Shown here: positions 29,014 to 46,283 of the stretch, piece after piece | Position numbering within the stretch: position 1 is the first letter of the stretch | Layout: each line of letters begins with the position of its first letter | NCBI GenBank assembly: GCA_022826705.1 | Contig: JAJDUJ010000027.1 | Location: 167,880 to 231,879 of the forward strand | Direction of reading: 5' to 3' | Source: Acidimicrobiia bacterium | Lineage (GTDB): Bacteria > Actinomycetota > Acidimicrobiia > Acidimicrobiales > Bin134 | DNA length: 64,000 bases | Notes under the pieces: generated by a model | What the model was told of the DNA's origin: nothing | What the model saw: only the letters and a program-made list of their open reading frames with translations | The model's database searches: none | Translations under genes and position numbers: made by a program

Positions 29014-29283
29014 ATGAGCAACGCCCAGATTGTGTGGCTGAACACCGAGACCGCGGCAAAGCGGCTGGGGATCACTACGCGAACGCTGTACCGGTTCATC
29101 AACGAAGGGGGTTTGCCCGCCTATCGAATGGGCCGGGTAATCCGGGTCAAGCAGGCCGATGTGGATGCCTTCATAGAGAGCAGCCGCATCGAGCCCGGCA
29201 CACTCGGCCATCTGTATCCCGACCCTGTCTCTGTCGGCAGCGCCGACAAGGGAGAGGAAGGCGATGCAGACGCTGAGTCCTGA
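29014..29283 (+). CDS. Excisionase/MerR-type helix-turn-helix DNA-binding protein
   Basis: 89-aa ORF from ATG 29014: LNTETAAKRLGITTRTLYRFINEGGLPAYRMGRVIRVKQADVDAFI. Lies directly upstream of phoH. Confidence 0.75.
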   Translation: MSNAQIVWLNTETAAKRLGITTRTLYRFINEGGLPAYRMGRVIRVKQADVDAFIESSRIEPGTLGHLYPDPVSVGSADKGEEGDADAES

Positions 29284-30761: not shown

Positions 30762-31600
30762 GCGTTCTCGGCCGATTCAATCTCCTGCGGCGGCTGGTGC
30801 GAGCCAGTTGGCGTCGGGAGGCGCCGCAAGTCTCCGAGGAAGAGCTGCTGGCCATGGCCGAAGCGGCCGAAGCGTCGGACGCTATTGAGCCCGAAGAACG
30901 GGAGCTGATCGGCCAGATCATCGAGTTTGGCGACACGGTGGTTCGAGAGGTGATGGTGCCCCGTACCGACACGGTGGCGATGAGCAATCAGCACACGGTG
31001 GAAGAGGCCATCGCCATCGTCATCGAGCACGGCTATAGCCGGGTGCCGGTGTACGCCGAGGGCATCGACGACGTGGTGGGAGTGGTCCACGCCAAAGACC
31101 TGATGCGCGCCGAGCGGGACCAGGGTCCCGGTTCTCCCGCAGTAGCGGTGGCCCGAACGCCCCGCTTCGTGCCCGAGACCAAGCGAATATCCCTTCTGTT
31201 GCGGGAGATGCAGGCCGAGAAGTTCCATATCGCCATCGTGGTGGACGAGTACGGCGGCACCGCCGGAGTGGTCACGCTGGAAGACCTCATCGAGGAGCTG
31301 GTGGGCGAGATCGTCGACGAGTTCGATGTGGAGGAGCCCATGATCGAGCGGGTGGCGCCCGGCACGGTGCGGGTCAACGGGCGGGTGCCCATCGACGAGC
31401 TCAGCGAAGTGCTGGACGCGCCCCTGCCCAACGGCGATTGGGACACGGTGGGCGGCCTGATCTTCAACACTCTGGGCCATGTGCCCGAAGAGGGGGAGAC
31501 GTTGGTGGTGGACGGTTGGGAGCTGTTGGTGGAGCGGGTGACCGGGCGGCGCATCGCCCGGGTTATCGTGAAACCGGTTCCCGACCCAGCCCAGACCTGA
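30758..31600 (+). CDS. CBS-pair + CorC/HlyC C-terminal domain protein (no DUF21 membrane domain)
   Basis: 280-aa ORF with FGDTVVREVMVPRTD, a CBS pair, and a CorC_HlyC-like tail. ATGA overlap with ybeY. Confidence 0.8.
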   Translation: MSVLGRFNLLRRLVRASWRREAPQVSEEELLAMAEAAEASDAIEPEERELIGQIIEFGDTVVREVMVPRTDTVAMSNQHTVEEAIAIVIEHGYSRVPVYAEGIDDVVGVVHAKDLMRAERDQGPGSPAVAVARTPRFVPETKRISLLLREMQAEKFHIAIVVDEYGGTAGVVTLEDLIEELVGEIVDEFDVEEPMIERVAPGTVRVNGRVPIDELSEVLDAPLPNGDWDTVGGLIFNTLGHVPEEGETLVVDGWELLVERVTGRRIARVIVKPVPDPAQT

Positions 31601-31628
31601 CCTGCCCGATTTATCGCCGGAGCGGGTA

Positions 31629-32240
31629 GTGGCCAAAGTGAGCTTGACCGAGGCCAGCCATGCGTTGGCCCAGACCTCAGAGGTGATGGCCGGACTCGTG
31701 CAGCGGTTCGGCCCGGCCCGATTCGGCCCCAAGCCCTCCGTGGGGGAGCGGTTCGAGGTGCTGAGCCGCGAGATCGCCTACCAGCAACTGGCCGGCAAGG
31801 CGGCCGGGGCAATTTGGGGTCGGGTGCGGGAGCAGGCGTCGGAGTGGGCACCGGGTGCGGTGCTGGCGCTGGGCGAGCAGCCGCTGCGAGAAGCAGGGTT
31901 GTCGGGGGCCAAGACCCGGGCGATGCTCGACCTTGCCGCCCACTGCGAGCAGGGCTTGCTGGACTTGGCCAAGCTGGGGCGGCTGTCCGATCAAGAGGTG
32001 GTCGACCGGCTCAGCCAGGTGTGGGGCATCGGCACCTGGACCGCCCATATGTTCTTGATCTTCTCGCTCCGCCGCCTGGATGTGTGGCCGGTGGGCGACT
32101 TCGGCGTCCGCAAAGGGTACGGCCTGGCCCACAACTGGACCGAGCCCCCCACCGCCGAGGAATTGGAACCACTGGGCGATCAGTTCCGCCCCTACCGCAG
32201 CGTCGCCGCCTGGTACTGCTGGCGAGCCACCGAGATCTGA
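31629..32240 (+). CDS. HhH-GPD DNA glycosylase (DNA-3-methyladenine glycosylase II / AlkA-like)
   Basis: 203-aa ORF with the helix-hairpin-helix region VWGIGTWTAHMFLIF...DVWPVGDFGVRKG. Confidence 0.75.
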   Translation: MAKVSLTEASHALAQTSEVMAGLVQRFGPARFGPKPSVGERFEVLSREIAYQQLAGKAAGAIWGRVREQASEWAPGAVLALGEQPLREAGLSGAKTRAMLDLAAHCEQGLLDLAKLGRLSDQEVVDRLSQVWGIGTWTAHMFLIFSLRRLDVWPVGDFGVRKGYGLAHNWTEPPTAEELEPLGDQFRPYRSVAAWYCWRATEI

Positions 32241-32289
32241 CGTTCCCAAGGGGGCATTGCCAGGGGATGGCCGGGGATATGCTGGCTCG

Positions 32290-33033
32290 ATGTCTGAGGC
32301 AACATCTGCCGCGCCGGCTGCCTATGCGGTCGGTGCCGCCAAGTATTACGGAAGCGGTGCCGCCGAAGTTCGGGCCCTTGACGGCTTGGACGTGGCCTTC
32401 GCACCCGGCGAGTTCACCGCCATCATGGGTCCGTCGGGGTCGGGCAAGTCCACGCTGATGCACTGCATGGCCGGCCTCGACACCCTCACCTCCGGCCATG
32501 TCTACATCGACGGCGAGGATGTGAGCGCCATGTCCGACCGTCAGCGCACAGTGCTGCGGCGCGAGAAGCTGGGCTTCATCTTTCAGGCCTTCAACCTGGT
32601 TCCCATGCTCAACGCCAGGGCCAACATCGTGCTGCCCCAGCGACTGGCCGGGCACGACCCCGACGAAGGCTGGCTGAACGAGGTGGTCTCCACCGTAGGG
32701 CTGGCCGATCGCCTGGACCACCGCCCCAGCGAGCTTTCCGGGGGACAGCAGCAGCGGGTTGCCGTGTCGCGGGCGTTGGCCTCGAAGCCGAAGCTGGTCT
32801 TTGCCGACGAGCCCACCGGGAACCTCGACAGCACCACCAGCAATGAGATCCTCACCTTCATGCGTCAGGCGGTCGACGACCTGGGCCAGACCATCGTGAT
32901 GGTCACTCACGACCCCAAGGCGGCCTCCTACGCCGATCGGGTTGTGTTCCTCGTGGACGGCCAGATCGCCAATGAGATGCGCGATCCCACCAGCGATGCG
33001 GTGCTCGACCACATGAAGACGCTGGGCAACTGA
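32290..33033 (+). CDS. ABC transporter ATP-binding protein (MacB/LolD-type)
   Basis: Start moved to ATG 32290 (MSEATS...). Walker A GPSGSGKST, signature LSGGQQQRV, Walker B LVFADEPTGNLD. Confidence 0.9.
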   Translation: MSEATSAAPAAYAVGAAKYYGSGAAEVRALDGLDVAFAPGEFTAIMGPSGSGKSTLMHCMAGLDTLTSGHVYIDGEDVSAMSDRQRTVLRREKLGFIFQAFNLVPMLNARANIVLPQRLAGHDPDEGWLNEVVSTVGLADRLDHRPSELSGGQQQRVAVSRALASKPKLVFADEPTGNLDSTTSNEILTFMRQAVDDLGQTIVMVTHDPKAASYADRVVFLVDGQIANEMRDPTSDAVLDHMKTLGN

Positions 33034-33039
33034 CCCGAC

Positions 33040-35556
33040 ATGCTCTCGATCGCTCTGCTGAGAGTCGTCCAAAACCCCTTCCGGTACGTCGCCACCGCTC
33101 TCGCCATCATCTTGGGGATCGCCTTCTTCACCGCCACCTCGGTGCTGACGACCTCATTCGAGAAGTCGCTCAATACCAGCATCGAAGAGAGCTTCAAGGA
33201 CGTCGACGTCGCCGTGCGCTCGACGAACAAGATCGACACTCCGGTGTTCGACGCCCGCGAGCGCATACCGGCATCACTGGCCGATGAGATCGCGGCCGTT
33301 GAGGGAGTGGCCGGCACATTTCCCTATCTCGCAGGGTACGCCCAGGCCGTCACCGCCGAAGGCAAGACGATTGGCGGCGCCGATGCCGGGGCGCAGGGAA
33401 TCGCCTGGATCGACGACCCCGTAGCCAACCCGTTCGATGTCGTGGAAGGCCGGGCACCGGTTGCCGCCAATGAGATCGTCATCGACGCCGACACCTTTGA
33501 GAGCGGCGACTTTGCCTTGGGCCAATCAGTGTGGGTGCTGCCCGCGCCGGCCAGCTCGCCGTTCACGGTGACCGGCGTCATCCTCGACCGCGAAGGTAGC
33601 TTCCCGGGCCAGGTGGTGTCCTTCACCTTGGATGGGGCATTGGCGGTATTGGGCACCTCCGATGTGGATCAGATTTTCGTAGAGGCCGACGACGGCGTTG
33701 ATCCCCTCGTGCTCGCGGAGCGGATCAACCAGCAGTTCGGCGGAGAGATCGAGGCCGTCACCGGAAATACCCTGGTGAGCGAGTTCCAAGATGTGATTGG
33801 CTCGTTCGCCAGGATCATTGAGATCGCCCTCCAGATCTTTGCCGGTGTGGCGCTGTTCGTCGGTGCGTTCGTGATCTACAACACCTTCACGATCACCGTC
33901 GCCCAGCGGATGCGGGAGATGGCCCTGCTGCGGGCGATCGGGGCCTCCCGCCGCCAGGTGACGGTCAGCGTCATGGCTGAGTCGACGGCCATCGGCCTGG
34001 TGGCATCGGCTCTCGGAGCGGCCGCGGGAATCGGAATCGGTTGGATACTGCTCCGGCTCCTGAGCGGTTTTCTCGGAGACTTGGACATGAGCCTGCACGT
34101 CCCGACCGGCGCGCTCGTCGGCGGGGTATTGCTGGGCACGGTGATAACCGTGGCCGCTGCGTATTTCCCGGCGCGCCGGGGCGCGCGAGTAGACCCGGTG
34201 CAAGCGCTTCGCGAGACGGCCACCGAGACCGTGCTGGCCAGCCGGGGCCGCTCCCTCGCCGGGTTCGCGGTATTGGCTGCGGGACTCGCCATCACAATCT
34301 GGGCCGCCCTCGGCGGCGACTCCCGGCTGCTCATTGCCGCGGTCCCGCTGGTGGTCATCGCCGCTGTGGTGCTCGGCCCGGTAGTGGTACGACCGCTCAG
34401 CCATCTGCTCGCCGCACCATGGGTTCGCTCCGGCTCGATTACAGCAGAACTGGCACGCGACAACGCCTCCCGCAACCCCAAGCGCACCGCCACCACCTCG
34501 CTCACGCTGATGATCGGGGTGGCCCTGATCGCCACCGCCACCATGTTCGCGGCCACGCTGAGCAACCTCATCGCCGGAGACCTCGATGAGGAGCTGTTGG
34601 CCGACCACGTGGTGGAGATCAACTCCAACCTGACCTTTGTCGGCGCGGGCCTCGACCCCGAGACCGCATCCGAGATCGCAGCCATCGACGGTGTGGCGGC
34701 CGCAGTAGCGGTGCGCGACTCATTTGCTGAGATCGACGGCTCCTTCACCCCTGTCACCGGCATCGACACCGCGCAAGTGACGCTGGTGGCAGACATCGAA
34801 GTGGTCGACGGCACGGTGACTGGTCTGGGCGCCGATGAAGTGGCGGTGAGTATTGATACCGCGGAAGACGAAGAGCTCGCCGTCGGCGACCGCGTCGCGG
34901 TGCGGTTCCAGCAGGGTGCCGCCAGCCTGGTGGTGGCCGGAATCTACGACCGCGGCGAACAGCTCTTGCAGAGCTGGCTAGTGGACAACGCTGTTCTCGA
35001 CGCCAACCTGCCCCGCAGTCTCGACACTCGAATTCTCATCCGCACCGACGGCGCCGACGCGGCAATGCTGGCCCAAATCGATGAAGCGCTCGCCGGCAAC
35101 CCCACTGCCAGTGCCAAGAGCCGCGACGACTACATCGACGATCAGGCTGGCCAGCTCTCCGGTCTGCTCACGCTGTTGTACGCGCTGCTCGGCATGTCGG
35201 TGGTGGTCGCCCTGCTCGGCATCGTGAACACGATGTCGCTTTCGATCTATGAGCGCACCCGCGAACTGGGGCTGTTACGGGCCGTCGGGATGACCAGCCG
35301 ACAGCTTCGTCGTGCAGTCCGCTACGAGTCGGCCATCATTGCTCTGATCGGCACCCTTGCGGGGCTGGTCCTTGGCGTTTTCTTGGGCTGGGCCGCCTTC
35401 GATGCCCTCGGTGTGGGCTACTCCGACTTCACCGTGCCGTGGGGATCGCTGATCGCCATCGGCGTCGCCGGCCTCGTCGCCGGCCTCCTTTCCGGGGTCC
35501 TTCCCGCCCGCCGAGCAGGCCGATTGGAAGTGCTCGACGCAATCGCAGCGCCCTAG
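33040..35556 (+). CDS. FtsX-family ABC permease with two FtsX domains (MacB-like)
   Basis: 838-aa ORF with two MacB-type periplasmic regions, each followed by an FtsX 4-TM module (LRAIGASRRQV, LRAVGMTSRQL). Confidence 0.85.
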   Translation: MLSIALLRVVQNPFRYVATALAIILGIAFFTATSVLTTSFEKSLNTSIEESFKDVDVAVRSTNKIDTPVFDARERIPASLADEIAAVEGVAGTFPYLAGYAQAVTAEGKTIGGADAGAQGIAWIDDPVANPFDVVEGRAPVAANEIVIDADTFESGDFALGQSVWVLPAPASSPFTVTGVILDREGSFPGQVVSFTLDGALAVLGTSDVDQIFVEADDGVDPLVLAERINQQFGGEIEAVTGNTLVSEFQDVIGSFARIIEIALQIFAGVALFVGAFVIYNTFTITVAQRMREMALLRAIGASRRQVTVSVMAESTAIGLVASALGAAAGIGIGWILLRLLSGFLGDLDMSLHVPTGALVGGVLLGTVITVAAAYFPARRGARVDPVQALRETATETVLASRGRSLAGFAVLAAGLAITIWAALGGDSRLLIAAVPLVVIAAVVLGPVVVRPLSHLLAAPWVRSGSITAELARDNASRNPKRTATTSLTLMIGVALIATATMFAATLSNLIAGDLDEELLADHVVEINSNLTFVGAGLDPETASEIAAIDGVAAAVAVRDSFAEIDGSFTPVTGIDTAQVTLVADIEVVDGTVTGLGADEVAVSIDTAEDEELAVGDRVAVRFQQGAASLVVAGIYDRGEQLLQSWLVDNAVLDANLPRSLDTRILIRTDGADAAMLAQIDEALAGNPTASAKSRDDYIDDQAGQLSGLLTLLYALLGMSVVVALLGIVNTMSLSIYERTRELGLLRAVGMTSRQLRRAVRYESAIIALIGTLAGLVLGVFLGWAAFDALGVGYSDFTVPWGSLIAIGVAGLVAGLLSGVLPARRAGRLEVLDAIAAP

Positions 35557-35713
35557 AGGTGGATCGCAGACCGGCAATCAGCGGCGCGTGGATTACTAAC
35601 CCGGCCTAGACGGTGTTTACATTCTTGCCAGTTGAGTTGACAGAAGAGGTGGTTTGTAGGGTGGTGACCAGCGGTTATACCAATGCTACGGCCTTGTAAA
35701 AAGGGCGTTGGTG

Positions 35714-35752
35714 GCCCCCGCCATGCTGGCTGTATGGCGGGGGCTTTCGCTT
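35714..35752. terminator. Bidirectional terminator-like hairpin between the convergent FtsX gene and the island ORFs
   Basis: Perfect 11-bp stem gcccccgccat/atggcgggggc with a 9-nt loop. TTTCGCTT follows on the plus strand and a CTTTTT run lies nearby on the minus strand. Confidence 0.65.
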
Positions 35753-35807
35753 CATGGACGCAGTGTGGCAAGCCGGGAGCGAGGGTAGGGCGATGTCCCA
35801 CTGTGGG

Positions 35808-36050
35808 TTACCGGGAGGTCCCCGCCCGGTCGACTAGGCGCCTTACCTCTCTCCGTAGCGCGTCGGGAGCGACCCCGGCAACGCAAAGGCCGACGAGAAC
35901 GACGACCACTGCCAACCATCGGGGCAGGTCGATGAGAGTGGTGAATGCGCCCACCCAACCGAGGAGCACGGCGAGGAAAATCCAGTAGTCCAGGACGCTT
36001 CTCTTATTGAACGCTTCGAGTAGCCTCTTGATCGCTTCGAGTAGCCTCAT
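35808..36050 (-). CDS. Small membrane protein (80 aa, 2 TM), hypothetical
   Basis: AGGGGG lies 6 nt upstream of ATG 36050. Hydrophobic segments YWIFLAVLLGWVGAFTTLI and LAVVVVLVGLCVAGV. ATGA overlap with the preceding micro-ORF. Confidence 0.6.
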   Translation of the reverse strand: MRLLEAIKRLLEAFNKRSVLDYWIFLAVLLGWVGAFTTLIDLPRWLAVVVVLVGLCVAGVAPDALRREVRRLVDRAGTSR

Positions 36051-36127
36051 CGACGCCCCCTGGCGATGTAGAGGCCGGTACCGATGGCGACGGCCAGCAC
36101 GATCAGGAAGAACTCGTAGAAGCCCAT
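36047..36127 (-). CDS. Candidate 26-aa single-TM micro-protein (MGFYEFFLIVLAVAIGTGLYIARGRR)
   Basis: Its ATG shares one nucleotide with the upstream stop (TGATG), and its stop overlaps the downstream ATG (ATGA). It has a hydrophobic core and a basic tail. Confidence 0.35.
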   Translation of the reverse strand: MGFYEFFLIVLAVAIGTGLYIARGRR

Positions 36128-36366
36128 CAGCCCGTCTTGACCTGTTCGTCGTCCCAGTAGAAGATTTTCGGGACGTGCCGCCTGACCCCGTTGAGTAGTG
36201 GTGTACCGACGAGCATCGCCACCGCTGCGAACCAGTACCAGGTGTTGGTGGCGGCCTGGGCGAAGGTCAACGTTCCGAACAGGCAGGCGAAACCGGTCCA
36301 CCACTCCACCCGTTTACGGTATAGCCACCGGGGTAGCTTTACCGGCCGGGAGAAGCGTCCTGGCAT
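36127..36366 (-). CDS. Small membrane protein (79 aa from ATG 36366), hypothetical
   Basis: The ORF is open to 36471, but that part is antisense to the transposase relic. Hydrophobic segments WWTGFACLFGTLTF and WYWFAAVAMLVGTPLL. Confidence 0.45.
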   Translation of the reverse strand: MPGRFSRPVKLPRWLYRKRVEWWTGFACLFGTLTFAQAATNTWYWFAAVAMLVGTPLLNGVRRHVPKIFYWDDEQVKTG

Positions 36367-36369
36367 GGT

Positions 36370-36900
36370 CTCGACGATAGCCGACCTAGCAGTACCGCCT
36401 AGCAGTACCGCCATCAAAGCCCACCAGCACTCGGCGGGCGCAAAAAGCGGTTTGACCCCCGAGAAGTCCAAGACCCAGCAGGGGATCGGGAGGACTCACG
36501 GGGGTCTTAACTCGAAGGTGGTGCCGGTGTGCGACAAACAGGGTCTTATCTGTTCGTTCACGTTGGCTCCCGGTCCACGGTAGGAAGTGAAACTAGCCGG
36601 TGAGGTGGTTGGCGGGTTGGGTTGTGTGGGCCGGTTCCTGGGGGACAAGGCCTACGAAAGTTGTTCCCTCCGAACCCAGGTCGAACAGCTTGGGGTGGAG
36701 GTGGTGATCCCGTACCGGCGTACCGTGAAACGGCCGGGACCCTGTGACATGGAAGCGTACAAAGCCCGCCACTTGGTGGAGAACGCTTTCGCCGACTTGA
36801 AACAGTTCCGGGGTATCGCGACCCGTTACTGCAAGCTGGCTTTGACGTTCGGGGAGATGTTCGCCCTGTGCTATTGGCTCATATCAGGCTGGCAAGACAT
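36370..36900 (+). pseudogene. IS5/IS4-superfamily (IS427/IS1031-like) DDE transposase relic, 5'-truncated and with an in-frame TAG
   Basis: Contains AIKAHQHSAGAK...GIGRTHGGLNSKV and GDKAYES...YKARHLVENAFADLKQFRGIATRYCK (Y-x2-R-x3-E-x6-K signature). In-frame stop at 36581-36583. The N-terminal ~100 aa and inverted repeats were not found. Confidence 0.8.
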
Positions 36901-36995
36901 ACCCGGCGATGAGCGTCTTTTGACCGCGGGCACACTGCCGACCTGCGCGAGAACCGGGGAGGCCCAAGATGGGACGAGGATTTGCTGAGGATCGT

Positions 36996-37898
36996 TTACT
37001 TGGCCTTTGCCCATCCGGCTATGTGATTGCCGCTTATGGGCATGTCCCTAGCTCTCAAGAGCAAACCGGGCGGAAAATGCCAATACTTCGCCAGCAGCCT
37101 GATTCTTCGCGTTGGCCAGAGCTCGAACGGCAAGCCGAACACCCATGTGGCCGCGAACAGCGCCGCTGTCAACACAGAGACCTCTGAGACTGGATAGAAG
37201 ATCCAAAAGTCGAACACCGTGAACTCCTCGACGACACGAAGGACGCAGAACACCGCAAACAGGCCATGAACAAACCCGACGATTGACGGCAGCGGCAAGA
37301 AGCGGGATGTCTTGGCGCGATCAGCCCACGAGTTTCTGAGGCTGCGGGCCCTGATGGCGGCGCGCGCCTTCACCCGGGCTTTGTCGCGGCAGGGGATCAA
37401 TGTCAGGACCATCGCGTCTCCACCGTCAAGATGGGCGTTCAGGTTCGCGGCGAGGCCCTTGAGATAATCATTGCCGGGCCTCGGGACCTTCGAATCTCCG
37501 GAAGCCCCGTTAGACCTGACATAAGAGATCCTCCAGCCGGAAGCTCGGGCGATCCCAGTCGGGGGAGCGCACTGCGTCGCCACGCACCCCGCGGCTTCGG
37601 CGACATGGTGGGCAACTACATCGTCTTTCTCGGCGCTCGTGCCGATCCACACCCGCGGGGCGGCGCCGGGCTGGCGGACTCTCACGATCACCAAAGAGCG
37701 CGCCGGCCACCATCCACTCTTCAGTTCTTGCAGGGCGAATCCCACTCTCAAGGGCTTCACGCTGTCCTTCGAGTGCGTCAGCTCCCACCACTTGCGCTTT
37801 CGCGCCCACATCGGCTGACGCCTCGACAACAACACGGAAACAACAGCAAGCACGGCCCCAAAAGCGACGAACAGCAGCGATGCCATGAAAGATCCCAC
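36996..37898 (-). CDS. Hypothetical membrane protein (300 aa; N-terminal TM, soluble middle, 2 C-terminal TM), third gene of the island operon
   Basis: Begins 48 nt after the STAND gene stop. Start is GTG 37898 or ATG 37886 (GGGA 6 nt upstream). TM segments ASLLFVAFGAVLAVVSVLL, IVGFVHGLFAVFCVLRVV and VLTAALFAATWVFGLPF. No family recognised. Confidence 0.6.
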   Translation of the reverse strand: MGSFMASLLFVAFGAVLAVVSVLLSRRQPMWARKRKWWELTHSKDSVKPLRVGFALQELKSGWWPARSLVIVRVRQPGAAPRVWIGTSAEKDDVVAHHVAEAAGCVATQCAPPTGIARASGWRISYVRSNGASGDSKVPRPGNDYLKGLAANLNAHLDGGDAMVLTLIPCRDKARVKARAAIRARSLRNSWADRAKTSRFLPLPSIVGFVHGLFAVFCVLRVVEEFTVFDFWIFYPVSEVSVLTAALFAATWVFGLPFELWPTRRIRLLAKYWHFPPGLLLRARDMPISGNHIAGWAKAK

Positions 37899-37946
37899 TC
37901 TAACCGCCGAGAAGGGACGAGGCTCTGCGGTCAGTATGGGACCTAC

Positions 37947-40900
37947 TCAGGGTTTGGTTACGTCGAGCACTGTGACGGAGATCTTGGTGGATTGCTCCGG
38001 CGTCAGGCTTTGTTCGAGGACCTGCTTCAACTCTTGGGGAGTGGCGGGGCGGTGGCCCTCTGGTGATCGGGCCGTTTTTTCGGCGCCGAACCATAGAACG
38101 AGGTAGATGCCGTGCCCAGAGGTAGCGGGGTCGGTGGTGTACAGGGCGATCAGCTGCTTATGGAGAGAGTCCCAGAGGTCAGGGTGGGGATTCTTCTTGA
38201 TTTCGACCGGCACGTTGAAATCCCCATATTTCGCGCTGATATCAGCTCTCCTGGCTGAGGGGTAGCGGCGCTCCGGCTCAAGGTCGATCTTGTGAGAAAG
38301 ATCGCATGCTCGAAGGATTCGGATCAGCGTGTCTCGGCAGGACTCTTCGTGCCTAGGTGTCGGCTCTGGGCCTTCGTTCCAAAAGTCCTGCCAAGGGTTG
38401 CTGTTATCGCCCAGGATGTATGCTGCGGCTTCGATGAGGTGGTCATTCAACAGCGCCGCCAAGTCTGCCGCGTTGGCTGGTAGGCCGTTGTCGAGCGTGC
38501 GCTGTACTTGCTCGACGCTGGGCTGGCTGTAGTTGGCGTCGCGAAGCAGTATGCGCTGTTGTTCTTCTGCCCGTCTGAGTTGGTCTCTCCAGGGCACAAG
38601 TTGGGGATTGCTGATCAGGTCCAATAAGGCAGCATTGGCTTCGCGACTTGCATTTGAGCTGAGCAACAAAATTAGGTCGTTCATCCGCCAGGATGCATCT
38701 AGCTCTGGGCCGCCCGATACTGCCCCCATGCCGGTGATGTCAATTGGGTCGTAAAAGCTGCCTATGAGCCTTATGAGTGTAGAGATGGCTTGGGGACTTA
38801 GGTTCTTTAGTAGCGGAGATTCGGGGAACCAGTCGTTGTGGAAGCGGCCGCAGAGGAAACCGGTGAGATGTTGGATCCTCGTCTGGTTCTCGCATGCGTA
38901 CTCATCAAGGGAGGCCTGATGTTGTTCAGGCGAGATCAGCGCCCCAACCACTAGCCATCGAACCCGCTGAGCGACGCTCATGCTGTTCATGGAGAGCTTT
39001 TGATCAATTAGTTGCTCAAGGTCGGGCTTGTCAACCCTAAGCAACTTGTCCAGGAGCCGGTCGAGAAGGTGCATTTGGTCTTTCGGAGCGCGTACGGGAA
39101 ACGAACTCAGCAGCCTTGCGGTCAGTTGGTGGGCGAGGTCGGGATGCGTGCCTTCGATGCGCTCCAGTTCATTGAGCCCAGGTAGGATTTGCTCACCCGA
39201 TCGCATCGCGGCGTGGGCACACTTGAAGAGAACATCGGCTACTGATTCGGGGTCCTGTTCCAGCCATCGGTCAAACCAGTGCGTTGGCAGATTGGGGCGA
39301 TTTGCGAACGGGGAGAAAACACAGAAGTAGGTGGCAAGGGTGTTGCGCCTTTGCGTCTCGTCGAGTTGGTCCAGCAACGTCGGGTCTTCCCTAGAGAGCA
39401 AGTCGAGGCTCGTGATCACCGGATATGCCAACCACGAGTGCTTCGATTCCAAGGACAACAAGATCGTTTCTTGGGCATCGGGAACGTCATCCCGCCAGAC
39501 GGCATCCCGTAAAGCCACCATGACAGCGTCGACGAGGTTGGGGTCGCCTCCGATGAACTCCCCGATTCGTTGGCGGGGATTGGCATCTTTGTCGGCCCAG
39601 CCGAGTTCACCAAAGTACGCCCGTGCCAAGGTGTGGAGATTCGGGGGGTGGAACCGGTTTGCCCGCAGCTCCGACTCTTGGGACCGCAGTTGAGTGTCCC
39701 AGTCTTCCCGTCTTTGACGCTCTTCCTCCTCCTGCTCAGCGATTCGGATTTGCCGCCGCTGCTGGGATTCGGTCGGTTTAGGATCAGGAGTGCGTGGCGT
39801 GCGGAGTTCCTCAAGTCGCTGCTCCAGATCGCCGTGCCCCCGTGTTCGGGCCTGCAGCAATTCAAGCGATAGGCCATCGTTGATCGCCGGGTTATGTAGT
39901 GATCGGTACGACTCTGCAAGGAAGTAACGGGCCGCAGGCAGCTCAGAATCTGCCAGCTCTACCGCTTTGTCCAAACACCACTGGCCAAAATCTGCGGGAG
40001 GCGCGCTTCCTAGTAGCACGTCACAGAATTCCCAATTGTGGAGCATCGAGAAGCGTTCCTGATCGTCCTGCTTGAGCCAAGCCAGAAACAGTGCCTTTTG
40101 GATCTGAGGACGAGCATTTAGCCACTCTTGAATGGGGCGTAGATGGTCTTCCCTCCAATGGGATCTCTCCACAAGTTCGGCGACAAGGCCGAGCCAGTTG
40201 TATAGGCGAGACAGCTCGACATCCTCTCCGCACTCCGCTAACGCACGGGCCAGCAGTTTGAAGGGTAAGTCGTCGGCCATCGATGCGCTGAGGGCGGGAA
40301 TGAGGTTCGAAGCGTCTTCGTGCAGGGCGTCGAGCAACTCCAATATCTGCTGACTGGAGGATTCCTTGATCAAATCTTCGTATAGGAACTGACTAAGGCG
40401 GTAGCGGACGTTGTGCGGGTTGAAGGGCAGGGCGTACCGCCACACCTGCGAGGGGCTCAGAGGATCGGGGTAAAGGCTGTTGAGCAGGATTCCCCGAAGT
40501 TGCCCGTCTGGGTCTGGAAGCACGTTGCTGCGGATTTCTTCAAGGAGCTGCTGAAGTTGGCGTGTCCTTACGTTGCATGGGGGGGCGACATGCAAGAACG
40601 TTTCCAAGGCAAAGCCCCTGGTATCCGGTGGCCGTCCGGGGTCGCACGCGATTGCCCATACGTCAGAGGTCAGTTCGGCTAGACGATCCAGTTCCGACTC
40701 TTCAGCCTCGGACAGGATTTCAAGGACGAACTCGACAATTCGGTGTTCGCCGATTCCAGACCCCGGTCTTGTGAGCACATCTCTTATGGCGTCTGCCATG
40801 TCGGCCGAGGCCAGAGACCGAAATGCTTGAGCGGTAGACCCCGGGTGCCAACCGCTGCGGTCGTCGGGCCTCTCATGGCCGAACAGCGGACCCTGCTCGG

Positions 40901-42110
40901 CGAACGTGGCCAGTGACTCCAAAAGCTGTTCCTTCTCGTCGGGGGTTAAGCCTCCGATATCTCCGTATAAGCCGACGCCAATGGGGTCGGCCTCAATCAG
41001 CTTTCGACGGGCGGTGGAGGAGTGCGCTGCCAGCCAGGCGGAGAGTCCCCTTAGCACGGTCGCGACCCTTTGGTCGCTGGGGCTGGTCATCAGCGACATG
41101 GTTCTGCTTGCTGGAAGGCCATCTCTGGTCAGCTTGGCCAGGTAGCGACCCCCCAAGAACTCTGCGACGTGTCGGTGAACAGGTCTGACTCGTCGCTCGT
41201 CGGCACCGCTGAACAATCTTGTTCCAAGGGTTCGTTTCAGGCTGCTGCGGGATAGTTGGTCTGGCGGTTCCTGTAGTTCGTCGACGGATGGGAACAAGAG
41301 GTCGTCGAGTAGGGGAGTCAAGGAGTACCCCTCGGTGCCGGCAAGCAACTGCAATGCGCACAGATAGCCAGCAGCATCCATGGCGGTATCCGACGGAATG
41401 TGATCAGCTCGCTCCAGGTGCTCCTCGTTCTGCTCAGCAGCCATCTTGTGGCAGGCCAACTCAAAGGTCTCCTGTCTGCTCTTGGGCCACACTCCACCTT
41501 GGCCCACCGCTTTGGCGAGCAGTGTCAGCGTCTGTGGGTTGCGCAGCACCGCGCCCATACCTCGCTCTTTGGCCTTAGTGATGAACTCTTGGGCGTCTCG
41601 GGAGCCGTCAAGTGAGTTCAAAAGGGCGATGATCGCATCATCATTGAGGGGATCGAGCCGCAACTCGGTGATCTGTGAGTCGGGAGAGACGGTAGCTAGA
41701 TTCTTGCGGTCGTTGGTACCGAGCCAGTCTGCCTCTCGGCAGGAGATGCGGAAGAGGGGCCGTCCAAGCCGGTCGAGTTGGCTGATGATCTGATCCAACG
41801 GCGTTAGAGAGTCAGTAGTGCCAGCCCGCATCTCGTCGAGTCCGTCAATGAAGAGGGTCTTTCCTCGCCACTCTGGATGGGAGTCCACATCAGACCTGTT
41901 GAACTGGCGGGCGCTCAGGTACTCAGCTGCGTCGCCCAACGCTTCAGCCTCTTGCTTGAATTCGGTTGTTTTGCCTGAGCCGGCGTCGCCCAGGAGGGCA
42001 TAAGCCTGGGACTGCCTGAATGCGCTGAGCGGTTTGGGTTCGCTGAGAATGATGCCTCGGTAACCGTCTGAGTCGAGCTCAGTGCAGGTTCGATCGACTG
42101 GGGTGCTCAT
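37947..42110 (-). CDS. 1387-aa STAND/NACHT-like P-loop NTPase with a long helical region and a C-terminal PD-(D/E)xK-like nuclease motif
   Basis: Walker A LLGDAGSGKTT (41964-41990), Walker B TLFIDGLDE, NPQTLTLLA after the NTPase core, and a charged coiled-coil segment QRRQIRIAEQEEEERQRRED. The C-terminus reads EESCRD...RRADIS...VPVEIKK...HKQLIALY (D1290, E1303, K1305; 38196-38243). Confidence 0.75.
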   Translation of the reverse strand: MSTPVDRTCTELDSDGYRGIILSEPKPLSAFRQSQAYALLGDAGSGKTTEFKQEAEALGDAAEYLSARQFNRSDVDSHPEWRGKTLFIDGLDEMRAGTTDSLTPLDQIISQLDRLGRPLFRISCREADWLGTNDRKNLATVSPDSQITELRLDPLNDDAIIALLNSLDGSRDAQEFITKAKERGMGAVLRNPQTLTLLAKAVGQGGVWPKSRQETFELACHKMAAEQNEEHLERADHIPSDTAMDAAGYLCALQLLAGTEGYSLTPLLDDLLFPSVDELQEPPDQLSRSSLKRTLGTRLFSGADERRVRPVHRHVAEFLGGRYLAKLTRDGLPASRTMSLMTSPSDQRVATVLRGLSAWLAAHSSTARRKLIEADPIGVGLYGDIGGLTPDEKEQLLESLATFAEQGPLFGHERPDDRSGWHPGSTAQAFRSLASADMADAIRDVLTRPGSGIGEHRIVEFVLEILSEAEESELDRLAELTSDVWAIACDPGRPPDTRGFALETFLHVAPPCNVRTRQLQQLLEEIRSNVLPDPDGQLRGILLNSLYPDPLSPSQVWRYALPFNPHNVRYRLSQFLYEDLIKESSSQQILELLDALHEDASNLIPALSASMADDLPFKLLARALAECGEDVELSRLYNWLGLVAELVERSHWREDHLRPIQEWLNARPQIQKALFLAWLKQDDQERFSMLHNWEFCDVLLGSAPPADFGQWCLDKAVELADSELPAARYFLAESYRSLHNPAINDGLSLELLQARTRGHGDLEQRLEELRTPRTPDPKPTESQQRRQIRIAEQEEEERQRREDWDTQLRSQESELRANRFHPPNLHTLARAYFGELGWADKDANPRQRIGEFIGGDPNLVDAVMVALRDAVWRDDVPDAQETILLSLESKHSWLAYPVITSLDLLSREDPTLLDQLDETQRRNTLATYFCVFSPFANRPNLPTHWFDRWLEQDPESVADVLFKCAHAAMRSGEQILPGLNELERIEGTHPDLAHQLTARLLSSFPVRAPKDQMHLLDRLLDKLLRVDKPDLEQLIDQKLSMNSMSVAQRVRWLVVGALISPEQHQASLDEYACENQTRIQHLTGFLCGRFHNDWFPESPLLKNLSPQAISTLIRLIGSFYDPIDITGMGAVSGGPELDASWRMNDLILLLSSNASREANAALLDLISNPQLVPWRDQLRRAEEQQRILLRDANYSQPSVEQVQRTLDNGLPANAADLAALLNDHLIEAAAYILGDNSNPWQDFWNEGPEPTPRHEESCRDTLIRILRACDLSHKIDLEPERRYPSARRADISAKYGDFNVPVEIKKNPHPDLWDSLHKQLIALYTTDPATSGHGIYLVLWFGAEKTARSPEGHRPATPQELKQVLEQSLTPEQSTKISVTVLDVTKP

Positions 42111-43378
42111 GTTGCCTCGAACCAGTGGTCGGCGGGTTCGGACAGGAACTCGTGTAGGGGCACGCCGGAGTTCCCTACAACGACGGTTGCTCGGGGCTTG
42201 AAGCGGCGCTCGAATTCCAGAAGTCCGCGATTGGTAGTCCGCGCATGTCCGCTCTTGACTTCGATGCCAACCACTTGGGGGCCCCTTTGGAGCACGAAGT
42301 CCACCTCGTAGTTCCCTTCTCTCCAGTACTTGACCGCGGTGGCCGACGAGGCCGTGTTGAACAGGTGCGCTCCCACTGCGCTCTCCACCAGTCGGCCCCA
42401 GAATGTGCTGTCGGCTCGGGCTTCCTCAAAGGAGTACCTCAAGGCTGTCGACATCAGAGCCGTGTTGAGCACATTCAGCTTTGGTGTTGAGGCCCTGGCT
42501 GAAACCGGACGCTCGGTGTGCTTGGAAAGGCCGGTGATCAGTCCCGCCTGTGAGAGCAGGTCCAGATATCTCGCCAAGGTGGTGGTGTTGCCTGCGTCTT
42601 GAAGATGGCCCAGCATCTTGTTGAACGACAGGATTTGGCCGGAGTACAGCGCCCCGAGCTCGAAGAGCCGCTTCAACAGCGCAGGCTTGTCAACCCTGGT
42701 CATCGCGAGCACGTCCCGCTCGATGTTGGGTTCCACCAGCGCGCCGCGTACATAGGCCCGCCAGCGCTCTTGGTCGTGGGCCAATGACGCGGCCCCTGGA
42801 TAGCCGCCGAAATACACGTACTCATCAAGGCTGTAGCCGAAGGCGTCGGCCATTTCTGGGTAGGACCAGTGCCTGACGTGGATTGGCTCGAACCGGCCGG
42901 CCAGGCTCTCGCTCAATCCCGCCTGCATCAAGATCGGTGCCGAGCCGAGAACAATCACATGGAGGGGACAACCGCTGGCGCGGTCGGCATCCCAAAGACC
43001 CTTGACCACTTCCGACCATTGCTCGATCTTCTGGATCTCGTCGAGAACCAAAACAAAACCCTGTGGCGAGTTCCACGCCTGGCGCCGACTCTGCTTCCAC
43101 ACTTTTTCCAGCCATCGGGCATCACGGAAAGTGGGGTCCAACACCGCGTAGTCGGCTTCTGAGGTGGCCGACGCAAGATCAGCCCTCTGTTCCGGAGCGT
43201 CTATCGCCTCGTAGTGGTGTCGCAGCCCGACCTGCTGGAGACCTTGTCGCGTCGCGGTTGTCTTGCCAGTCTGGCGAGGTCCGAATACGGCAATGAGCCA
43301 TTGCGGGGGCTCTGACAGCCGCTGGACAAGAGTGTCGACGTGCGAACGCCGGAATTCGGCCATACACGCAGTATACAC
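42107..43378 (-). CDS. AAA ATPase of the COG1373 / AAA_14 + DUF4143 type with a restriction-endonuclease-like C-terminus
   Basis: Walker A FGPRQTGKTT, Walker B FVLVLDEIQKI, C-terminal YEVDFV...VGIEVKSG motif. Stop overlaps the next ATG (ATGA at 42107-42110). The likely true start is ATG 43363 (MAEFRR). Confidence 0.8.
   Translation of the reverse strand: MYTACMAEFRRSHVDTLVQRLSEPPQWLIAVFGPRQTGKTTATRQGLQQVGLRHHYEAIDAPEQRADLASATSEADYAVLDPTFRDARWLEKVWKQSRRQAWNSPQGFVLVLDEIQKIEQWSEVVKGLWDADRASGCPLHVIVLGSAPILMQAGLSESLAGRFEPIHVRHWSYPEMADAFGYSLDEYVYFGGYPGAASLAHDQERWRAYVRGALVEPNIERDVLAMTRVDKPALLKRLFELGALYSGQILSFNKMLGHLQDAGNTTTLARYLDLLSQAGLITGLSKHTERPVSARASTPKLNVLNTALMSTALRYSFEEARADSTFWGRLVESAVGAHLFNTASSATAVKYWREGNYEVDFVLQRGPQVVGIEVKSGHARTTNRGLLEFERRFKPRATVVVGNSGVPLHEFLSEPADHWFEAT
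43363..43375 (-). promoter_or_regulatory. Putative -10 box (TATACT) positioned for a leaderless transcript of the AAA ATPase gene
   Basis: The minus strand reads TATACTgcgtgtATG, with the hexamer ending 6 nt before the A of ATG 43363. There is no Shine-Dalgarno sequence. Leaderless mRNAs are common in Actinobacteria. Confidence 0.35.
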
Positions 43379-43383
43379 GGTCG

Positions 43384-43421
43384 GATTATGCTATTGAGTA
43401 AAGTTACTCAATAGCATAATC
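43384..43421. repeat. Perfect 18-bp AT-rich inverted repeat (gattatgctattgagtaa / ttactcaatagcataatc) with a 2-nt spacer
   Basis: Read directly. Lies between the tmRNA 3' end (43424) and the AAA gene start. Could be an operator, a recombination site or an ssrA terminator stem. Confidence 0.9.
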
Positions 43422-43423
43422 AG

Positions 43424-43811
43424 GGTGGAGCTGGGGGGAATCGAACCCCCGTCCGCTGGGCGAGATCTGTCTGTGATACGACCATTCCCGGTGTGTGGCG
43501 TCGATGGCAGCCGCGCCGCCGGGTCGGGCGGCCCCCGTTAGGGGGCCCGCCACCGGGTCTGTTCCCCGGAGCCAGCGGTCTTTCCCGCCGTCAGTGGTCT
43601 GTCCCTACTGTCTCCACCGCTTCTGTTGCCGGGCTGCGGTGGACCGGCCCCGCGTGCCGTTACCGGTCGCGGTTCTTCTCTAGGCCAGAAAGATCAGGCT
43701 GCGAGAAGTTCACGGTCTTCGCCGTTTAGTTGGTTGCCCCGTTTTGCGAGTCTGAGCAACTCGGGTCGCACAGCGCAGCCCTCGGTCCCAACGTCGAAAC
43801 CGATCAGCCCC
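43424..43811 (-). ncRNA. ssrA: tmRNA (SsrA), one-piece
   Basis: The minus strand begins GGGGCTGATCGGTTTCGAC and ends GGGGGTTCGATTCCCCCCAGCTCCACC (tRNA-Ala-like acceptor and T arm). The internal tag frame GGC GAA GAC CGT GAA CTT CTC GCA GCC TGA ends in LAA (43694-43723). Confidence 0.9.
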
Positions 43812-43977
43812 GTGTGCACAGTTGTCAAGGTGCCCCGCCATGATACCGGCCCGGCGCGACAGCGATCCCCAGGATTTGGTAGCTAAGTCCGTCTCTTGAC
43901 GGGCTTCGTCGGCTGAAGAGGCCCGACGCTGCGGGGATTCTGGGCTAGATTTCTCGCCAATAACCGGGTAGGGCGAG

Positions 43978-44910
43978 GTGCTCGGATCAGAGGAGGCTCG
44001 GCTGCGGGTTGGTTTCGTTGGGTTGGGGACGATGGGCGGGCCCATGTGCCGGCGACTGGTGGCCGCGGGTTACTCAGTGATTGCGTTCGATCTCAGCGAG
44101 GAGGCGCTGAGTGTCGCGGTTGAGGCCGGTGCGGAAGCGGGGAAGTCGGCCCGCCAGTGCGCTAAAGACGCCGATTTCATGTTGACGTCGCTGCCAGCGC
44201 CTCACCACGTGGAATTGGTGATGGCTGGGCCGGACGGTGCTTTGGCGGCCATGAAGCCGGGCGCGGTGTGGGTGGATCTCACCACTAACCGCCGAGAGCT
44301 GGTGCTGGAGTTGGCTGCGGCTGCCCCAGAGGGTGTGTCGGTGGTGGACGCTCCGGTGACCGGGGCAGTGGACGGAGCTCGCCAAGGCCAGCTGACGGTG
44401 TTCGCGGGCGGCGATCCCGAACCGGTGGCCGCGGCCCGAGAATTGCTGGGACATCTCGGCAATGTGCTGGAGTGCGGGCCTCTCGGCACCGGCAACGTGG
44501 TGAAGCTGGTTACCAACCAGCTGTGGTTCGTTGCTGCGGCCGCGCTGGGGGAGGGGCTGGCGGTGGGGGTGGCCAACAACGTGGACTTGCGAACACTGTG
44601 GGAGGCCATCTGCGACAGCGTTGGCGACAGCTTCGTGGCCCGCCATGACGCCCCGAGCATCTTCGCCGGCCACTACGACCCGTCGTTTCCGCTCGGGCTA
44701 TGCCTCAAAGACCTGGGGCTGATCGAGGAACTGGAGGCGGGTGTGAATGCCGAATTGCCCATGACTGCTGCGGCTAGAAGTGCCTTCGAGCGCGCCGCGC
44801 AGCGCTACGGCGTCGACGCCGCCGAACTGTGCGTGGCCCGGCGCATTGCCGACGATGCCGGTGTCTGCTTGCAGCTCGACGGAGACTGGACACCCCATTG
44901 GGAGGCGTGA
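43978..44910 (+). CDS. NAD(P)-dependent oxidoreductase, 3-hydroxyisobutyrate/6-phosphogluconate dehydrogenase-like
   Basis: 310-aa ORF with the N-terminal Rossmann motif VGFVGLGTMGGPM and the HIBADH-type C-terminal helical domain. Confidence 0.8.
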   Translation: MLGSEEARLRVGFVGLGTMGGPMCRRLVAAGYSVIAFDLSEEALSVAVEAGAEAGKSARQCAKDADFMLTSLPAPHHVELVMAGPDGALAAMKPGAVWVDLTTNRRELVLELAAAAPEGVSVVDAPVTGAVDGARQGQLTVFAGGDPEPVAAARELLGHLGNVLECGPLGTGNVVKLVTNQLWFVAAAALGEGLAVGVANNVDLRTLWEAICDSVGDSFVARHDAPSIFAGHYDPSFPLGLCLKDLGLIEELEAGVNAELPMTAAARSAFERAAQRYGVDAAELCVARRIADDAGVCLQLDGDWTPHWEA

Positions 44911-45782
44911 TGCAACCGACCGCGCCGGTTTCGCTGGCCGACTTGGTTGAATTGGAGGAATTTCCGATCCACGATCCGGCCTCACCGCGATACCTAGAGG
45001 TGGTAGACGTTGCCCGGAGCGGCCTGCGGGCCGAGGGCTGTGCCGTGCTCAGCGGCTTCGTGCGGGCTGAAGCGATCGAGCTGCTCAACGAAGAAGTCCT
45101 CGAGCGCAAGGAGGCCACCCACTACTCCACCCAGGTGATCAATCCCTACTTCCACACTGCCGTGAACCCCGATTATCCGTCCGATCACCCGGTGAACACC
45201 TTCCTCGAGCGCACCAGCGGCTTCATCCCCGGGGACGCCTGGGACCAGGACTCTGCCACCGACATGTTGTTTCGGTCACCGGAGGTGGCTCGCTTCGTCG
45301 CCGATTGCCTGGAGATTCCGGCGCTGCATTGCTACGACGATCCACTGGCCCGGCTGGTCACCAACGTCTGTGACCCGGGCCAGCAGCTGACCTGGCACTT
45401 CGACACCAATGAATTCACGGTCACCGTGTTGGTTCAGCCTGCCGACGAGGGCGGCATGTTCGAGTACGCGCCGAGTATCCGATCAGCCGACGACGAGGGG
45501 TTCGACGCCATCGCCGAGGTGCTGGCCGGAGGCCGACGCGGAGTGACAACCCTGGATCTTCGCCCCGGCGACCTCCAGATCTTTATGGGCCGCTTCTCGA
45601 TGCATCGGGTGACCAGGGTGGGGGAGAAGTCAAGGCCCCGCCACACCACCATTTTGGCCTACACCCCCGAGCCCGGCGTGATCGGCCGCGTGGAGCGCAC
45701 CCGCCAGCTCTTTGGGCGCGTTTTGCCTGCCCACGAGCACGCCGAACAGGAACGAGTCCGCGCCGACGCCCTGCTCGATTGA
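44910..45782 (+). CDS. Putative Fe(II)/2-oxoglutarate-dependent oxygenase
   Basis: ATG 44910 overlaps the upstream stop (TGATG). Contains an HxD...H facial-triad candidate (WHFD ... FSMHRV). The assignment is tentative. Confidence 0.5.
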   Translation: MQPTAPVSLADLVELEEFPIHDPASPRYLEVVDVARSGLRAEGCAVLSGFVRAEAIELLNEEVLERKEATHYSTQVINPYFHTAVNPDYPSDHPVNTFLERTSGFIPGDAWDQDSATDMLFRSPEVARFVADCLEIPALHCYDDPLARLVTNVCDPGQQLTWHFDTNEFTVTVLVQPADEGGMFEYAPSIRSADDEGFDAIAEVLAGGRRGVTTLDLRPGDLQIFMGRFSMHRVTRVGEKSRPRHTTILAYTPEPGVIGRVERTRQLFGRVLPAHEHAEQERVRADALLD

Positions 45783-45785
45783 AGT

Positions 45786-46283
45786 TCAGGGGTTGGCCGC
45801 TCGGCCCATCTCGTTGCGAGCCTCGCGGCGGGCGTCTTGTTCGGCAATGGTTTGGCGCTTGTCGGCTCGGCGGCGGCCCCGGGCCAGACCGATCTGCACC
45901 TTGGCCCGGCCTTGCTTGAAGTAGAGGGACAGAGGGACGACGGTGAGGCGGTCTTGCTCTAGGCGGGCCTTGATGCGGTTGAGCTCGCCTCGGTGCAAGA
46001 GCAGCTTCTTGGGGCGGTCGGGGTCGTGGCCACCGGCGCCTCCGGCGTGGCTGTAGGGGGCGATGTGCAGCGACTGGAGCCACAGCTCGCCATCGGCCAT
46101 GCGGGCGTACGACTCGGTGAGGGTCACGTTGGATTCCCGCAGCGACTTCACTTCCGATCCCACCAGCACCAGGCCGGCCTCGTACTCGTCGAGGATCTCG
46201 TAGTCCCTCCGGGCGCGGCGATTGGTAGCCACCACCTTGGTGCGCTCTTGCTCGCTACTCGTCCCCGGCTTCGGCCCGGCCAT
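45786..46283 (-). CDS. smpB: SsrA-binding protein SmpB
   Basis: VATNRRARRDYEILDEYEAGLVLVGSEVKSLRE... and the basic C-terminal tail are typical of SmpB. ATG 46283 is preferred over TTG 46307. Confidence 0.9.
   Translation of the reverse strand: MAGPKPGTSSEQERTKVVATNRRARRDYEILDEYEAGLVLVGSEVKSLRESNVTLTESYARMADGELWLQSLHIAPYSHAGGAGGHDPDRPKKLLLHRGELNRIKARLEQDRLTVVPLSLYFKQGRAKVQIGLARGRRRADKRQTIAEQDARREARNEMGRAANP

Follow-up and report, generated by a model that had tools for sequence, protein, structure and literature searches.

The question raised by this locus is what kind of DNA lies against the 3' end of ssrA, the gene of transfer-messenger RNA (tmRNA), in an Acidimicrobiia bacterium and how it came to be there. 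The window that we analysed is the whole stretch of 64,000 nucleotides. Its source is a 231.7-kb metagenome scaffold (KELL22-1_SAMN22237336 scaffold_89), on which an identical copy of the 1387-aa NACHT protein described below was found, and its host is an uncultured, sponge-associated organism near Candidatus Poriferisocius. tmRNA genes are classic landing sites of mobile DNA. Positions 35753-43423 had been described from the letters of the window as a horizontally acquired and since decayed island that lacks an integrase, carries orphan genes and an insertion sequence (IS) relic, and interrupts a conserved gene block (the original prediction). Comparison with related genomes indicates that the region is probably the occupied state of a hotspot between ssrA and the gene of an HhH-GPD glycosylase, and we infer that 35582-43424 is the remnant of a decayed, ssrA-integrated defence island whose predicted two-gene anti-phage operon was kept intact.

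A strain-variable hotspot at the 3' end of ssrA

Relatives were collected by an Era-anchored scan of species-representative genomes, which gave 16 close relatives with 85-98% Era identity, plus distant Acidimicrobiia; the loci compared are given here by L numbers. All 16 are Acidimicrobiia metagenome-assembled genomes (MAGs), several of which are named Candidatus Poriferisocius or Sva0996. The ssrA gene was observed to be 89-99% conserved in these genomes, and in the window its 3' end is directed toward the low-GC region on the minus strand. An empty site was found in L003, L015 and L010, where the spacer between HhH-GPD and the 3' end of ssrA is 25 nt long (L003 and L015) or 13 nt long (L010). 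The window matches L003 and L015 at 97% identity over 28000-32248 and from 43425 on. Since homology breaks at 32248 and resumes at 43425, which is 1 nt from the 3' end of ssrA, the strain-variable DNA comprises 32249-43424 (11,176 nt). The island had been predicted to start at 35753; the variable DNA begins earlier, at 32249, and a real mosaic boundary lies near the predicted start, at 35581, where the DNA shared with L043 ends. The variable DNA can thus be divided into an exporter segment (A, 32249-35581), a segment unique to the window strain (B, 35582-37269) and the defence cassette (C, 37270-43424).

The core flanks are shared by about 18 relatives, and about 15 other relatives carry different cargo at the site. 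This cargo was found to be highly varied: a different PDC-S01-family ATPase (L014), PDC-M38 A/B (L013), a 1471-aa DpdF/UvrD-like helicase (L009), an integrase accompanied by QueC and other genes (L004), a giant RCC1-repeat protein (L023), a hybrid sensor kinase (L005 and L012), a short-chain dehydrogenase (L007 and L008) and metabolic genes (L026). The site therefore has the features of a core defence hotspot, with conserved flanks and varied defence cargo (PDC-S01, PDC-M38, DpdF-like, QueC, AbiEii) next to non-defence genes. The genes of the window do not occupy this position in all relatives, most of which carry unrelated cargo, and the region between the 3' end of ssrA and HhH-GPD is a strain-variable hotspot in sponge-associated Acidimicrobiia.

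One cargo gene was noticed repeatedly. A giant helicase in which DEAD/Helicase_C and UvrD parts are fused (1471-1695 aa; PADLOC DpdF-like, E 1e-115) was seen at the hotspot of L020 (1-3457), L009 (254-4669) and L033 (12295-17382), and in L020 and L033 it directly follows the NACHT gene.

Composition of the variable DNA

The GC content of 35753-43423 is 0.595 as against 0.663 in the window outside 32249-43424. In 2-kb windows, tetranucleotide composition departs from that of the remaining window with z values that reach 3.2-7.3 over 35.5-43.5 kb, and it is at background on either side. G+C at third codon positions (GC3) was observed to be 0.67 in the NACHT gene, 0.73 in the ATPase gene and 0.72-0.79 in the small open reading frames (ORFs) and the IS relic, compared with 0.81-0.90 in the core genes phoH, ybeY, corC, HhH-GPD, smpB, era and dinG. 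Composition is thus atypical over 35.5-43.5 kb and not in segment A. A fall in composition had been proposed from two 60-nt counts (32/60 G+C at 38581-38640 and 47/60 at 48601-48660); both counts proved exact, and the sliding GC, GC3 and k-mer profiles that we ran are not flat. The deviant composition together with the empty ssrA sites of L003, L015 and L010 supports the horizontal acquisition that had been put forward.

A mild dip was also considered at 7473-11550, after a tRNA-Val gene (GC 0.61-0.62, z 2-3). The genes there form a Liv-type amino-acid uptake operon of the ATP-binding cassette (ABC) kind, with a solute-binding protein, a fused permease and two ATPases, and this stretch is probably not an island.

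The two proteins of the defence cassette

The cassette contains two large genes, which had been taken for orphans. This description was wrong, as both have thousands of homologues and form a two-gene operon (Table 1). The first product matches the PADLOC PDC-S01 model PDLC04791 along its full length (E 6.9e-163; residues 9-420 to model positions 2-394 of 395), and its start at ATG 43363 is backed by alignment with L006, L020 and L033. A nuclease motif of the D...ExK type (D...E-V-K) was found at its C-terminus. In the description of PDC-S01, an ATPase carries a fused PD-(D/E)xK domain; the candidate is very common and not experimentally validated (PMC12988326).

The second product is a 1387-aa protein that aligns with positions 17-1318 of the 1318-position NCBIfam model of EruA (NF058535) at 880.7 bits, which is under the model's cutoff of 1000 bits. 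Erebus (EruA), Hypnos and bNACHT64 were grouped as Avs10 in a 2026 preprint, in which the phage major capsid protein activated the members that were tested (PMC12803255). Like these systems, the window protein is colinear with the full EruA model, has a long helical sensor and a defence-island context, and carries the Walker motifs A (GDAGSGKT) and B (DGLDE). Among 35 homologues the Walker A motif and the Walker B motif, in its longer form FIDGLDE, are nearly invariant, as expected of a NACHT module; Pfam gave no NACHT match in the 1387-aa protein and the family name comes from NCBIfam. In the C-terminal 267 residues, E160, D170, E183-x-K185 and Q199..Y204 are invariant or nearly so in the same 35 homologues. 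An AlphaFold model of this part has a pLDDT of 82.8, and its top Foldseek matches in the PDB are all PD-(D/E)xK nucleases, at weak E values of about 1e-2. The model thus suggests that the NACHT protein carries a C-terminal PD-(D/E)xK nuclease as a putative effector. A sequence search of the PDB found no solved relative of either cassette protein.

Taken together with the known systems, these features point to an anti-phage operon as the cargo. The operon is transcribed in the direction of ssrA, with the PDC-S01-type ATPase-nuclease first and the NACHT protein translationally coupled to it. By analogy with Avs10, the NACHT protein, which has a helical sensor region, would most likely bind a conserved phage structural protein (the major capsid protein in the case of Avs10), after which it would most likely oligomerise, switch on its nuclease and abort the infection.

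Coupling of the ATPase and NACHT genes

The start of the NACHT gene overlaps the stop of the ATPase gene by 4 nt, and the same overlap was observed in all ten contexts examined. Five of these are at ssrA (the window, L006, L020, L031/L032 and L033) and five elsewhere (L034, L038, L039, L040 and L041). Identity to the window across these contexts ranges from 59 to 89% for the ATPase and from 46 to 76% for the NACHT protein, the NACHT partners of L040 and L041 being unscored. PDC-S01 is catalogued as a single-gene candidate, whereas here a DUF8371 NACHT gene follows it in every context. The NACHT homologues on proteobacterial plasmids (28-33% identity) are solitary, with no PDC-S01 neighbour, while here the NACHT gene is always coupled to the PDC-S01 gene. 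The literature searched gave no description of an operon of PDC-S01 with an Erebus/Avs10-like NACHT gene.

We therefore propose, tentatively and with doubts that outweigh our confidence, that in this large clade the PDC-S01 ATPase-nuclease is no independent single-gene system and has an Erebus/Avs10-type NACHT sensor-nuclease as its obligate partner, to which it is translationally coupled. Together they would make up a two-component STAND system, carried as a self-contained module (insulator hairpin, leaderless promoter and the two genes with their overlap) that is inserted at tRNA and tmRNA hotspots. If this is true, part of what surveys record as "PDC-S01" would represent one half of a two-gene system.

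At two of the five sites other than ssrA, the cassette was seen in defence-rich DNA just past a tRNA gene, tRNA-Pro in L034 (1673-1750) and tRNA-Met in L039 (3457-3533). The cassette of L039 also lies beside IS21 and SIR2-HerA genes.

The hairpin and putative promoter upstream of the operon

A perfect hairpin separates the operon from ssrA (Table 1). Across 10 loci, 82.5% of its pair cells are standard pairs and 7 of the 17 pairs change on both sides; several U.G pairs fit the sense strand only. The hairpin is part of the cassette, as related inverted repeats are also found ahead of the ATPase gene at sites other than ssrA. Its most likely role, as judged from the sequence, is that of an insulator or terminator against read-through from ssrA; an operator overlapping the -35 region is the less favoured reading. 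A hexamer of the form TAnnnT was found exactly 6 nt ahead of the start codon in all ten cassette loci. Leaderless transcripts of actinobacteria usually have this spacing. A sigma-70 consensus scan of 35.4-44 kb found no promoter, and so the proposed promoter rests only on this conserved hexamer at its fixed distance. The hairpin would most likely stop ssrA read-through while the operon is expressed separately as a leaderless mRNA. An arrangement of terminator-like hairpin and leaderless promoter could account for the tolerance of a toxic defence operon just downstream of the strongly transcribed ssrA.

Integration into ssrA and decay of the integrated elements

In this lineage, elements insert within the final 18-21 nt of ssrA by means of P4-type tyrosine integrases, stack in tandem and decay by deletion. 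In L004, a P4-type tyrosine integrase with Arm-DNA-bind_3, Phage_int_M and Phage_integrase domains adjoins ssrA. L023 retains an integrase relic of the first 55 codons next to ssrA, and 8.7 kb away the ssrA 3' end is repeated over 21 nt (273-293). A 4-kb insert (1230-5278) is found in L032 between ssrA and an 18-nt ssrA copy (5279-5296), which is followed by the hairpin and the cassette; this insert, present also in L031, contains a 110-aa ORF, an AbiEii toxin gene and the gene of a 776-aa protein, with no integrase among them. The hairpin, the PDC-S01 gene, the NACHT gene and a helicase gene of L033 occupy 10.8 kb between ssrA and a 20-nt ssrA copy, TCGATTCCCCCCAGCTCCAC (17524-17544), past which the sequence matches the flank of L008, of pre-insertion type. 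This att-bounded island is also without an integrase. In L007 only the hairpin and about 10 nt beyond it are left ahead of the dehydrogenase flank, which looks like a deletion scar.

In the window, the 20-nt core at the 3' end of ssrA has no second copy at up to 3 mismatches, and the best other match in 32-43.4 kb has 6 mismatches. No distal direct repeat of ssrA (attR) was thus found in the window, and no ORF of the island has a Pfam integrase domain. A tblastn search of the window with the L004 integrase gave a best E of about 0.9, outside the region only. These searches uphold the earlier report that integrase and att duplication are absent. Pfam, PADLOC and NCBIfam returned nothing for the 300-aa ORF and the two small ORFs of the window, the 776-aa protein of L032 and a 406-aa protein of L031, so none of these can be called a recombinase. 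Viral contigs scanned with the ATPase contained no close relative, and hence gave no evidence for a phage or satellite vehicle.

The distal end of the window island lies in segment B. No homology to 35582-36400 was found in any relative locus except L001 and L002, which come from the same sample. The predicted GC-rich hairpin at 35714-35752 exists on the plus strand (-39 kcal/mol for 35705-35765) and is followed by TTTCGCTTC. The predicted IS relic is likewise real and consists of two fragments of an IS5-family transposase at about 36401-36883. It is 5'-truncated, with the first ~94 model residues gone, and interrupted: an intact DDE transposase was not found, as only model positions 95-148 and 172-256 of 258 remain, in two ORFs. 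Beside it, homology to L031 and L032 starts abruptly at 37270, inside the 300-aa ORF, which is therefore chimeric. Its first 210 aa are 97% shared with L031/L032 and its C-terminal ~90 aa lie in strain-unique DNA next to the IS relic. A truncated IS5 and a chimeric ORF exactly where homology ends point to an IS-associated deletion of the distal end.

These observations suggest the following history. An island would have integrated at ssrA, and its ssrA-proximal part would have been kept intact. The distal part, with attR and any integrase, would have been lost through IS5 insertion and deletion, which left the truncated IS and the chimeric ORF, and homologous recombination would have further reshuffled the cassette between strains. 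The island had been called decayed: this holds for its mobility functions and for its distal end, given the IS5 relic, the chimeric ORF and the lack of both attR and integrase, and fails for the cargo.

Alternative explanations and points against the reading

A recombination-only history, in which the cassette moved solely through homologous recombination between the conserved flanks (ssrA/smpB and HhH-GPD/corC) and the ssrA repeats of relatives belong to unrelated elements, is unlikely, although it has real support. No integrase was found with the cassette in any locus, and integrase-free core defence hotspots are known elsewhere (PMC10250203). Identity along the cassette is also mosaic: the cassette is 99% identical to that of L032 over 37270-38050 and 63-71% identical over 38650-38850 and 40850-41650, with a sharp switch to 99% at ~38050-38250 in the comparison with the closest strain, and its flanks are 97-99% identical, also between strains with different cargo. 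From mosaic identity in the cassette and uniform flanks it follows that homologous recombination between strains reshapes the cassette as well. Evidence against recombination as the sole means comes from L033, where the cassette and helicase gene are precisely bounded by the 20-nt ssrA core with the L008-type pre-insertion flank beyond. Furthermore, the hairpin begins 2-3 nt past ssrA in four independent genomes, as expected at an attL, and the cassette occurs at other loci too, two of them just downstream of tRNA genes.

It is far less probable still that 32249-43424 was present in the ancestor of the clade and was lost by separate deletions in those relatives that lack it. The exporter pair of segment A is native in its composition and the L007 locus shows that deletions occur at the site, but the GC3 and tetranucleotide composition of the cassette are strongly deviant, the spacers of L003, L015 and L010 are short, mutually alignable and scar-free, about 10 unrelated cargoes are found at the same site, and the exporter orthologue of L042 is in a different, housekeeping locus. 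An assembly or binning chimera, with low-GC DNA of another organism joined at the repeated ssrA sequence, is scarcely credible: the source is a metagenome scaffold and tRNA-like repeats can cause misjoins, but an independent 10.6-kb Logan contig (L002) is colinear over the ssrA 3' end, cassette, IS relic, permease and ATPase, the junction of ssrA, hairpin and cassette recurs in closed or megabase-scale assemblies (L006, 3.59 Mb; L033, 3.51 Mb), and close homologues of both proteins are named Candidatus Poriferisocius or Acidimicrobiia at NCBI.

Segment A was considered separately. Its exporter pair is absent from the hotspot in the 16 close relatives. L043 shares the segment at 97.3% nucleotide identity up to 35581, where a hybrid kinase follows, and L042 has an 87% orthologue in a housekeeping neighbourhood. 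The segment is better seen as separate, native-type DNA that was relocated or exchanged at the hotspot. The ameliorated composition of the exporter genes had prompted a strict reading in which the oldest layer is the farthest from ssrA, and this was dropped on the arrangements of L031, L043 and L042.

Several observations weigh against an ssrA-integrated island as the origin of 35582-43424. As the window has neither an integrase relic nor attR, the integration of its copy is inferred from the relatives, and as the L033 cassette is without an integrase too, the cassette was never seen together with its own recombinase. The exporter pair is next to HhH-GPD in L043 and missing in L031, where the kinase adjoins HhH-GPD, so that the order of segments cannot be explained by simple accretion with the oldest farthest away. 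Every compared genome is a MAG or a metagenome contig. With regard to the cargo, the sub-cutoff EruA score and the 28-33% identity to proteobacterial homologues mean that the trigger cannot be assumed, and the Foldseek matches of the putative effector are weak. With these points included, the remnant of an ssrA-integrated defence island is still the probable reading.

Neighbouring genes and other features of the locus

The features of the locus are collected in Table 1. The flank annotation of the original prediction was correct, and smpB is added to it here. The phoH-ybeY-corC genes stop at 31600 and era starts at ~46325. In more distant Acidimicrobiia (L018, L019, L022 and L025), corC is directly followed by era, so that the interruption of this gene block in the window is real. 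It was found to be composite: HhH-GPD, ssrA and smpB lie between corC and era along with two strain-variable segments (32249-43424 and 43914-45792). In all readable close relatives, ssrA and smpB are also placed between corC and era, as is HhH-GPD wherever corC is visible, and the interruption of this old gene block is thus partly of genus level.

Table 1. Positions of the features described at the ssrA hotspot of the window
Feature	Position	Strand	Evidence and remarks
HhH-GPD glycosylase	31629-32240	+	Pfam; conserved core gene that flanks the hotspot on the side away from ssrA
MacB/FtsX-type ABC exporter pair	32249-35581	+	ATPase 32290-33033, permease 33040-35556; GC3 0.81-0.85
Strain-unique DNA	35582-36400	.	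Terminator-like GC hairpin and two small minus-strand ORFs
Small ORFs	35808-36050; 36127-36366	-	First has a weak, sub-threshold 8xMP match
IS5-family transposase relic	36401-36988	+	NCBIfam transpos_IS5_3; Pfam DDE_Tnp_1
Chimeric ORF, 271-300 aa	36996-37898	-	tblastn; no family match
Erebus/Avs10-like NACHT STAND NTPase, 1387 aa	37947-42110	-	NCBIfam NF058535 EruA; DUF8371
PDC-S01-type AAA+ ATPase, 418 aa	42107-43363	-	Pfam AAA_14 + DUF4143; PADLOC PDLC04791
-10-like hexamer TATACT	43370-43375	-	6 nt upstream of ATG 43363; putative leaderless promoter
Perfect 17-bp AT-rich hairpin	43384-43421	-	2-3 nt after the ssrA 3' end; -29.7 kcal/mol, z -6.8
ssrA (tmRNA)	43424-43811	-	ARAGORN; Rfam RF00023, 69 bits; 3' end at 43424 is the fixed island border
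att core TCGATTCCCCCCAGCTCCAC, 20 nt	43425-43444	-	ssrA T-loop to discriminator; single-copy in the window
smpB	45786-46283	-	Added to the original flank annotation

The second variable segment, 43914-45792, lies between ssrA and smpB and consists of a dehydrogenase/HalD-like gene pair, which is present in L004, L009 and L015 and absent from L003, L010, L014 and others. A degenerate copy of the smpB 3' end (~45 nt, 33/45 identical) was found at its left junction, and the smpB 3' end itself is at the right junction.

With regard to ssrA itself, the predicted tmRNA tag varies among close relatives (GEDRELLAA, GNDRELLAA, DT[NDK]RVPLAA, DNDAELLAA and GEDRQLLAA). The ssrA gene of L005 was missed by ARAGORN despite 96% identity. 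In L008, a 68-nt stretch (8584-8651) repeats an interior portion of the tmRNA (window 43587-43652, 94% identity) about 300 nt downstream of the intact ssrA, as a partial duplication. Sequences of 24-25 nt which are 92% identical to the ssrA 3' end were noticed in inverted orientation about 10 kb past era in L009 (19417-19441) and L014 (19696-19719), and no tRNA was called at these sequences.

Relation to known systems and implications

Tandem accretion and cis-mobilisable elements (CIMEs) are found at the att sites of integrative elements. The arrangements of L032 and L023, where a newer element at ssrA displaces an older cassette with a copy of the ssrA 3' end in between, and the att-bounded units without integrase of L033 and L032 resemble these; no conjugation or mobilisation genes were seen here. 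The 2002 classification of Williams reportedly covers genomic islands that integrate into tRNA and tmRNA genes and carry P4-type tyrosine integrases. The elements described here share with such islands their position against the 3' end of ssrA, the identity block of 18-21 nt from the T-loop to the 3' end and the integrase beside the gene in L004, whereas neither integrase nor distal repeat is left in the window copy.

The closest described hotspot is cDHS2 of Pseudomonas aeruginosa, which is also bounded by ssrA and core genes, is sometimes empty and otherwise holds varied anti-phage systems and mobile-element remnants (Johnson et al. 2023, PMC10250203). The two differ in phylum, in flanking genes (HhH-GPD/corC here, VOC/LysR/RidA in cDHS2) and in cargo repertoire, and in the Acidimicrobiia hotspot the att core and the nested insertions can be read directly. 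As a kind of island the locus is thus ordinary, and defence hotspots flanked by ssrA have already been described. What appears mildly new is that a PDC-S01 ATPase-nuclease and an Erebus/Avs10-like NACHT protein with a putative nuclease constantly share an operon, of which we found no earlier description in the literature searched.

To our knowledge, almost nothing is known of the mobile-element biology of sponge-symbiont Acidimicrobiia. In these uncultured symbionts, the locus documents a hotspot at which the att core can be read and nested insertions and states of decay are seen. An abundant PDC-S01 subfamily consistently placed in an operon with a NACHT protein offers a testable hypothesis for both proteins.

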